From positions 1-50,192 of the forward strand of contig JAPEUI010000114.1 in assembly GCA_026025075.1 (NCBI GenBank): 50,192 nucleotides of DNA, given 5' to 3'. This document shows positions 23,807 to 24,889 of the stretch, in pieces (the stretch's first letter is position 1; every line of letters begins with the position of its first letter). Under the pieces are notes generated by a model that did not search any database, had not been told where the DNA came from, and was given only the letters and a program-made list of their open reading frames with translations. The DNA comes from Vezdaea acicularis. Taxonomy: Eukaryota. Position numbers and translations under genes: made by a program.

Positions 23807-24889
23807 ATGTCAGATTCGCGAAATGCCATTCCATGGCGCCGCTTTTCCTTCTCCGGCCGGCTCAACGATGAAGAGCGTAATGCCCCTCTACCGCCTCTCC
23901 CTCCCGACGCGTTTGAACCGAAGCCGAGGTGAGAAGAGGCTGCTATAAGCCAAATTATTCTGCTAACGGTCATTAGGGACGACTCCGACCCACGCGTGGA
24001 ACAACCTTGGCTTTATATGCAACCAACTCAACGCAGGCGTTCTTTCATTGTCTGGGTTGCGTTGGCCTTCCTCTTTCTAGCCACTATTGCTGCTGTCATT
24101 GTCATCGCCTGGTACCTCTCCACCCACGGATCCCCACACCCGACAGCCAATTCTACAAACAGCTACGCCGACCGCGGCTCTCCTTACAGCCCCGTCCCAC
24201 CCGGCAACTCCTACGTGCGTGAGAAGCGGGGCATCTTCGACGCGTTTGGGTCGAATGATATATCGCAATGGGGTAGCGTCGTATTCGGGGGGACGCCCCG
24301 TGAAGATATCTCGAGCACCGACTTATCAGGCAACGGGGTTGCGTACAGGAAACGGGACGTCGAGTCTGTAGTGCCGATGGATTTCGCGCGTTTGCATTCA
24401 CGTGGCATCTTCGACGCCTTCGCTTCGAACGATTTATCGAATTGGGGGAGCGTGGTATTTGGGGGTACATCACGGACTGATGTCCAGAGCACGGATCTCA
24501 CGGGAAACGGCGTCGCAAATAAGGCGCGGGACGTCGAGTCTGCGTCACTGCAACGCCGTGGCATCTTCAGCGCCTTCTCCGAGAACAACCTAGGTATATG
24601 GTCTAGCATTGTCTTCGGCGGCAAGGACCGCAGTGCCGCTTCAAGCACGGACGAGACGGGCACAGGCATCGCAGGGACCAAGGTGAGGCGTGAAGAAGGT
24701 TCTTTGGAGGAGAGAGGCCTGATCGACACCTTCGCCGGCAACGTCGCGTCCTTTACAGACCCCTCCGCTCTATTCTCCAACGAGCGCTACGAGTACGGCT
24801 CCACCGATTCGACAGTGAACGGCATCGCGAAAACCCCTGGGTTCAAGATCGCGCAAGGAGAAGGCGGGCATTGTGTCAAGGGGTGCTGA
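23807..24889 (+). CDS. Membrane-anchored Kex2-processed repeat protein (multi-peptide precursor), 344 aa
   Basis: ATG in CACAATGTC context at 23807, intron 23929-23976 (GTGAGA..GCTAAC..TAG) joins in frame to the 297-aa ORF; one TM helix, then four related repeats after REKR, HSR, QRR and EER. Confidence 0.8.

Follow-up and report, generated by a model that had tools for sequence, protein, structure and literature searches.

A gene on contig JAPEUI010000114.1 of the Vezdaea acicularis genome assembly GCA_026025075.1 raises the question of whether a fungal precursor of secreted peptides can be tethered to a membrane. The gene lies at 23807-24889 on the plus strand of the 50,192-nucleotide stretch analysed here (the window; positions 1 to 50,192 of the contig). 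Its spliced product of 344 amino acids (aa) carries one hydrophobic segment followed by four related units. The original prediction described this product as a signal-anchored precursor of several peptides, delimited by sites for Kex2 or furin, and we find this interpretation partly supported as a whole. In our favoured reading, to which we assign a probability of roughly 45%, the protein would be a type II membrane pro-protein that is cut by a Golgi kexin and releases acidic peptides of about 40 aa, with a logic like that of the Rep1 protein of Ustilago. We infer topology, cleavage and peptide function from sequence features, which are described below.

The gene consists of two exons, with coordinates and sequence as originally described. 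Exon 1 (23807-23928, +; 122 nt) encodes aa 1-40 and two bases of codon 41, all belonging to a polar and presumably cytosolic tail. The 48-nt intron (23929-23976, +) has a full set of consensus signals: it starts with GTGAGA, carries CTAAC about 10 nt ahead of the 3' AG and ends in TAG. Exon 2 (23977-24889, +) includes the TGA stop codon at 24887-24889. Without splicing, the frame from the ATG at 23807 ends at a TGA at 23930-23932. The public model KAI9854158.1, which NCBI lists as 'MAG: hypothetical protein M1824_000577 [Vezdaea acicularis]', has the same length of 344 aa. Compared by eye, its sequence consists of the exon 1 residues followed by the exon 2 translation. A second public form, found by exact-sequence look-up and derived from assemblies, is 290 aa long.

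We conclude with high confidence that 23807-24889 (+) holds a real gene. Codon usage was scored with six Pfam-supported open reading frames (ORFs) of the window as the training set. Exon 2 reaches +36.1 bits in frame, whereas its two other sense frames give -42.5 and -72.3 and its antisense frames -14 to -128. Exon 1 also scores highest in its own frame among three, yet weakly (+4.9 bits over 40 codons). Cores 1 and 2 of the repeat units differ at 10, 5 and 23 first, second and third codon positions, respectively. Between these two units the proportion of synonymous differences (pS) is 0.71, which is saturated, the proportion of nonsynonymous differences (pN) is 0.17, and the ratio of nonsynonymous to synonymous divergence (dN/dS) is 0.09; between units 1 and 3 dN/dS is 0.11. 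The repeat units arose by old duplication and evolve under purifying selection, and it is because of this selection that the gene is considered real and its cores constrained. Since the synonymous divergence between units is saturated, the gene itself must be old. For the same reason the repeat is detectable only at the protein level, and Tandem Repeats Finder returned 0 rows on the DNA. Two open frames, counted stop to stop, run antisense over the repeats (24211-24786, -, 191 aa; 24153-24497, -, 114 aa); their codon scores are negative and they are therefore by-products of the composition of the sense frame.

The protein begins with a polar tail (aa 1-63) whose grand average of hydropathy (GRAVY) is -1.43 and which ends in Q-R-R-R-S. 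Because these first 63 residues are polar, the 344-aa model has no N-terminal signal peptide. A 25-residue hydrophobic helix follows (aa 64-88; 24044-24118, +), a predicted signal anchor with RRR at aa 60-62 just before it. Its Kyte-Doolittle maximum over 19 residues is 2.88, and windows above 1.6 start solely at positions 61-74, so that the hydrophobic segment is single. The net charge of the flanks is +2 on the N side, owing to RRR, and 0 on the C side. Under the positive-inside rule, this difference predicts an N-in orientation. Hydropathy and the charge rule together point to an N-in/C-out, single-pass type II topology, in agreement with the original prediction. In an AlphaFold2 model of the full protein computed without an alignment, the helix is the sole confident segment, with a predicted local distance difference test score (pLDDT) of 87-97. 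The juxtamembrane stalk (aa 89-125; 24119-24229, +) is rich in Ser, Thr and Pro and ends in R-E-K-R. Its combined fraction of Gly, Ser, Thr, Asn, Asp and Pro is 0.62, and it contains one N-x-S/T sequon (N99).

The tail, encoded by 23807-23928 and 23977-24043 (+), also contains the sequences R-R-F-S and P-L-P-P-L-P-P. By consensus, the former would be a site of the basophilic-kinase type and the latter a proline motif of the PxxP type.

Beyond the stalk, the ectodomain is an array of cores and spacers, laid out as originally predicted with cores starting at 24230, 24404, 24560 and 24716. Core 1 (24230-24346, +; aa 126-164; 39 aa, net charge -4) is followed by RKR and a 16-aa spacer that ends in L-H-S-R (24347-24403, +; spacer aa 168-183). 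Core 2 (24404-24520, +; aa 184-222; 39 aa, net -3) is followed by KAR and a 10-aa spacer that ends in L-Q-R-R (24521-24559, +; spacer aa 226-235). After core 3 (24560-24679, +; aa 236-275; 40 aa, net -2) come KVRR and an 8-aa spacer ending in L-E-E-R (24680-24715, +; spacer aa 280-287). Core 4 (24716-24886, +; aa 288-344) is degenerate but retains G1, F6, N9, R24, S-T-D, G36 and A38, and it ends in C-V-K-G-C. Nine columns are invariant across the four units, namely G1, F6, N9, R24, S29, T30, D31, G36 and A38. Units 1 and 2 are 71% identical, unit 3 shares 46% with unit 1 and 48% with unit 2, and unit 4 shares 24-29% with the others. The cores have an acidic character, with net charges of -2 to -4 and an isoelectric point (pI) of about 4.1. 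Gly, Ser, Thr, Asn and Asp are abundant in them; Phe and Trp occur in their first half, the invariant S-T-D..G.A in their second, and cores 1-3 lack Cys. The spacers are short and acidic.

Each of the four cores carries D-x-(S/T)-x-(N/T)-G-(V/I)-A after the invariant S-T (24320-24343, 24494-24517, 24650-24673 and 24806-24829, +). We take its spacing to be like that of calcium-binding loops of the DxDxDG type, but without an acidic residue at position 12. Cores 1 and 2 are identical over their first 12 bases (24230-24241 and 24404-24415), which form four C-ending codons, and core 3 is identical over the first 9. Amid saturated synonymous sites, this identity may stem from preferred codons or from a constraint acting locally at the putative cut site. 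A division of each core into two half-repeats of about 20 aa, in the style of a beta-solenoid, is unsupported, as the observed score is equalled or exceeded in 39 to 574 of 2000 shuffles. No second copy of cores 1-3 was found by tblastn in the window. The best other match (21885-21980, E 0.25) coincides in part with a longer opposite-strand ORF and was rejected.

Seven borders separate the cores from their surroundings, and Arg occupies P1 in all of them (four of four N-borders and three of three C-borders). KR or RR is present at four of the seven, namely N1 (YVREKR↓G, which also has the furin-type form R-x-K-R), C1 (VAYRKR↓D), N3 (ASLQRR↓G) and C3 (GTKVRR↓E). The claim that the repeats are delimited by Kex2 or furin sites stands for these dibasic borders. 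It does not extend to N2 (ARLHSR↓G), C2 (VANKAR↓D) and N4 (GSLEER↓G). The ectodomain contains five adjacent basic pairs, all of which sit at unit borders, and it is their placement rather than their number that stands out. Similarity between the units begins at P1, and the first repeat begins right after R-E-K-R.

A second pattern, which the original prediction had not mentioned and which slightly strengthens its interpretation, is found at the N-borders of cores 2, 3 and 4. The sequence L-x-x-R occurs three times in the 344 residues, each time immediately ahead of the first Gly of one of these cores. The P4 Leu and P1 Arg are constant at N2, N3 and N4, whereas P2 and P3 vary (HS, QR and EE). 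The codons for the P1 Arg at the four N-borders are CGG, CGT, CGT and AGA. The differing codons and the varying P2 and P3 residues therefore argue that the L-x-x-R pattern is maintained at the protein level. A study by Outram and colleagues gives LxxR together with KR/RR as an extended Kex2 motif set for fungal effectors, derived from effectors that they had cut with Kex2 in vitro; such cleavage was demonstrated for SnTox3, ToxA and SIX1/4/6 (bioRxiv 10.1101/2020.05.27.120113, PMC8528282). Bader and colleagues report that Kex2 is able to process the luminal portions of membrane proteins, as well as sites in which P2 is occupied by other residues. Strict cutting in silico at KR and RR would yield five fragments; the products would be cores 1 and 3, one piece of 68 aa and a C-terminal piece of 65 aa.

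These features are consistent with the following sequence of events. The 63-aa tail would remain cytosolic and the 25-residue helix would serve as an uncleaved signal anchor, leaving in the lumen the Ser/Thr/Pro stalk, three conserved cores and one degenerate core, with short acidic spacers between them. In the late Golgi a kexin (a Kex2-type convertase) would most likely cut R-E-K-R↓G first, 37 residues past the membrane, and so shed the array. Later cuts would fall at L-x-x-R↓G ahead of cores 2-4 and at RKR↓, KAR↓ and VRR↓ behind cores 1-3. The predicted products are three or four acidic peptides, each some 40 residues long, in which Gly, Ser, Thr, Asn and Asp are abundant and which contain Phe or Trp without Cys. 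They would reach the wall or the medium while a membrane stub of 125 aa remains. By size and logic, such peptides would resemble the Rep1 repellents of Ustilago more closely than pheromones, ribosomally made and modified peptides (RiPPs) or cationic antimicrobials. We therefore regard the protein as a plausible signal-anchored form of a Kex2-processed repeat protein (KEP), known from one species and with predicted cleavage.

Several observations weigh against this reading. Five basic pairs compare with a shuffle mean of 2.35, and 1394 of 20000 shuffles reach that count, which is not significant alone. Three of the seven borders are not dibasic, with Ala at P2 in KAR↓D, Ser at P2 in HSR↓G and Glu at both P2 and P3 in EER↓G. 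N4, with its two Glu residues, and C2, with its Ala, are expected to be poor Kex2 sites. All borders derive from a single ancestral unit, and their agreement cannot be counted as four independent observations. Every core also contains an invariant Arg (R24) in its interior, and a conserved Arg therefore need not indicate a border. The AlphaFold2 model, which is of low confidence, places the N-borders in helices (122-132, 175-191, 231-239 and 284-298), and such a position would hinder a protease. AlphaFold2 gives no confident fold for the units, but this is weak evidence since the alignments were one and four sequences deep. No homologue was found in which the conservation of border sites could be compared. 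Finally, the original prediction had listed an antimicrobial role among the possible functions of the peptides; a cationic antimicrobial role is unlikely because the cores are acidic, with a pI of about 4.1.

A sizeable though minority chance belongs to the alternative that the product stays at the cell surface uncut, or is shed once at most. Its repeats would then work while tethered on a glycosylated stalk, in wall contact, adhesion or sensing, and the basic residues at the borders would be ordinary ones. A 25-residue helix followed by a Ser/Thr/Pro stalk is typical of fungal membrane proteins that reside at the surface, and the RRFS and PLPPLPP motifs of the tail would be superfluous for a mere anchor. 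The three non-dibasic borders, the dibasic count that does not reach significance and the invariant Arg within each core also fit this alternative. However, it leaves unaccounted for the exact start of the first repeat after R-E-K-R and the onset of unit similarity at P1, as well as the constancy of P4 Leu and P1 Arg next to drifting P2 and P3 residues. Like pro-peptide spacers, those of the array are acidic and differ in length (16, 10 and 8 aa), and no fold is predicted for the units that would be displayed.

It is improbable that the protein is instead a conventional secreted KEP that starts at Met54 (ATG 24017), with the hydrophobic stretch as its signal sequence behind a 9-residue n-region and with exon 1 as a leader or an annotation artefact. 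The ORF from this in-frame ATG is complete without splicing at 290 aa and matches the public form derived from assemblies, and the coding signal of exon 1 is weak. Against this, the intron signals are full consensus and splicing restores the frame, the public gene model includes exon 1, and position -3 is occupied by A for the ATG at 23807 versus T for the ATG at 24017. The h-regions of cleaved signal peptides are much shorter than 25 residues, so the hydrophobic run would probably be an anchor even in the shorter form.

A RiPP precursor of the ustiloxin or dikaritin kind is very improbable. Repeated cores between basic sites would suit such a precursor, and Pfam gives a weak UstYa match (E 0.066-0.076, 13 bits versus a cut-off of 25). 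However, the match is limited to the helix and stalk and lies far under the cut-off; being centred on the membrane helix, it was rejected as an indication of UstYa identity. The 50-kb window has 105 ORFs with 110 aa or more. Among the 52 of these that we scanned against Pfam, no UstYa/DUF3328, tyrosinase or methyltransferase gene was found. With no tailoring gene among the scanned ORFs, a RiPP cluster is unsupported. The cores of 39-40 aa are several times the length of dikaritin cores. Cores 1-3 lack Cys. Tyr is present (at the end of core 1 and twice in core 4), but the short Tyr-containing motif of ustiloxin-kind cores does not recur across them. That the locus is a non-functional, chance or decaying ORF, as the lack of homologues in the collections searched might suggest, deserves hardly any credence given a dN/dS of 0.09-0.11 between cores at saturated synonymous sites, a strong frame-specific codon score and a 344-codon frame intact across a consensus intron.

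The protein had been predicted to be an orphan, and our searches agree. A phmmer search of 1.84 billion representative sequences returned the protein itself only. A word-indexed search of a 5.8 billion-sequence collection returned only its own cluster, whether the query was the 303-aa exon 2 product (against proteins of near length), the four-unit profile (against longer proteins) or the full protein (against shorter proteins). Pfam gave nothing above threshold, with the UstYa match as the only one below it. In the PDB, phmmer found no sequence match, and the best hit of a profile search had an E of 0.52. The ESM Atlas held no usable match for the exon 2 product or for residues 122-282. A known folded repeat domain, which had been named as one of the findings that would speak against the original interpretation, was thus encountered neither in Pfam nor in the PDB (by sequence or profile) nor in the ESM Atlas. 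AlphaFold2 gave a mean pLDDT of 40.8 for the full protein without an alignment, with the ectodomain below 40, and 49.1 for one unit with the four units as the alignment.

In metagenomes of the Joint Genome Institute (JGI), a scan with the unit profile produced 257 pattern matches and one tblastn-confirmed locus, L001, which we rejected as a chance match. The ORF that contains its S-T-D-S-S-G-N-G-I-A (2755-2859) is covered in part by longer ones of the opposite strand, and the contig is high in GC and of bacterial type. The match shows how easily a short S-T-D..G-I-A motif can arise by chance. In the NCBI taxonomy the class of Vezdaea, a lichen-forming ascomycete, is uncertain; a phylogenomic study of 2025 assigns the genus to a revised Lichinomycetes, within a clade represented by 13 sampled species. 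The gene is known from one metagenome-assembled genome of one species. The lack of detectable relatives more likely reflects thin genome sampling of an isolated lineage, together with fast change, than recent birth.

The surroundings of the gene contain housekeeping genes, as previously noted, including those for an IQGAP-type RasGAP (16148-21370, +; Pfam), the U2AF small subunit (25284-25973, -; convergent with the precursor gene), PEX6 and IMPDH. Other genes of the window encode a Cys/Met pyridoxal-phosphate (PLP) enzyme, a TRP-type channel, an amino-acid permease and a photolyase, and there is a sub-threshold DUF4185 match (24.9 bits versus a cut-off of 39.5). Between the IQGAP gene and the precursor gene, several open frames at 21666-22578 (-) resemble exons of another gene; a plus-strand ORF at 22132-22572 has no Pfam match. 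A large gene at 34546-38092 (+) carries DUF7611, DUF7612, DUF7613 and DUF7614 in series, all with strong Pfam matches. At 351-5422 (-) lies a retrotransposon of the Ty3/gypsy type, with a 1292-aa pol frame (reverse transcriptase, RNase H, integrase and SH3_Tf2-1). Its upstream frame of 410 aa has weak gag, capsid and zinc-knuckle matches, and the element looks largely intact.

Two large surveys of KEPs would not have detected a precursor of the kind proposed here. Umemura 2020 requires a signal peptide by SignalP-4.1, and Le Marquer 2019 requires a SignalP-positive start and removes membrane proteins found by TMHMM. A signal-anchored precursor is invisible to both surveys because of the SignalP-positive start, and to one of them also because membrane proteins are dropped; the original prediction, which held that signal-peptide-filtered surveys would miss the protein, is borne out by these criteria. 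If our favoured reading is true, such filters should be widened, and the cores would represent a candidate set of surface or signalling peptides for a lichen fungus. To our knowledge, the secreted peptides of lichen fungi are almost unstudied. A fuller scenario can be imagined in which the kinase-type and proline-rich tail of a membrane-tethered polyprotein times its transit to the kexin compartment, so that several acidic peptides of about 40 residues are co-released at the hyphal surface. These might form a lichen surface coat or a partner-directed signal at the interface of fungus and alga, and the protein would represent a class of signal-anchored Kex2 precursors that the design of every published KEP survey shuts out. 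We consider this scenario unlikely in its entirety.

Candida Ece1 is a member of the KEPs. The group also includes the alpha-factor precursor of yeast and Rep1 of Ustilago maydis (PMC6339444, PMC7329392). The Vezdaea protein resembles KEPs in combining tandem cores, basic sites and short acidic spacers in one polyprotein, with internal core repeats in four units, and would likewise enter the secretory pathway. Rep1 yields peptides of 37 aa that form amyloid fibrils on aerial hyphae, and the Vezdaea cores of 39-40 aa are of similar length, which we regard as a functional analogy and not as homology. No homology to Rep1 was found by phmmer against the 1.84 billion representatives or with the core profile, Rep1 not having been compared one to one. 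As for Rep1 and alpha-factor, no modification cluster was found near the Vezdaea gene, and the lack of UstYa/DUF3328 among the scanned ORFs sets it apart from precursors of the ustiloxin type. In contrast to KEPs, hydropathy indicates that the protein lacks the N-terminal signal peptide that is a defining criterion of that group, and its array lies behind a 63-aa tail and a 25-residue anchor. Repeats are nearly identical in most KEPs, whereas the Vezdaea array consists of three good repeats and one degenerate repeat that are 24-71% identical. Three of its seven borders are not KR, RR or KK, its cores are acidic, and it has no sequence similarity to any protein of the collections searched.

The effectors with a Kex2-processed pro-domain (K2PP), such as SnTox3, ToxA and SIX1/4/6 of Fol, provide a second comparison. 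They share with the Vezdaea protein a junction that has Leu at P4, Arg at P1 and variable residues at P2 and P3, placed ahead of the part that is, or would be, released and behind a disorder-type segment. However, these effectors carry a signal peptide and have a single junction, and their mature domain is folded, being Cys-rich or a beta-barrel. The Vezdaea junction recurs three times, before short units without a predicted fold or Cys.

The proposed arrangement of anchor and convertase site has clear precedents in animals. Our literature search for a signal-anchored or type II Kex2 repeat precursor in fungi returned papers on helminths and C. elegans alone; it found no such precursor, although this does not prove that none exists. 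The TNF-family ligands EDA and BAFF, as well as BRI2, are type II pro-proteins that are shed by furin-type convertases. About two thirds of the cuticle collagens of C. elegans are predicted to be type II, and the transmembrane ones carry an RxxR convertase site shortly past the helix, with the human MACIT collagens similar in anchor and convertase site (PMC11304992). The Vezdaea protein has the same arrangement of a short and presumably cytosolic N-terminus, a signal anchor and R-x-(K/R)-R a few tens of residues past the membrane. However, the animal proteins have collagen or TNF folds, a single release cut and no array of short cores, and the likeness is thus one of mechanism only. If the borders are cut as we suggest, fungal peptide precursors can be membrane-tethered, as the convertase-shed type II proteins of animals are.

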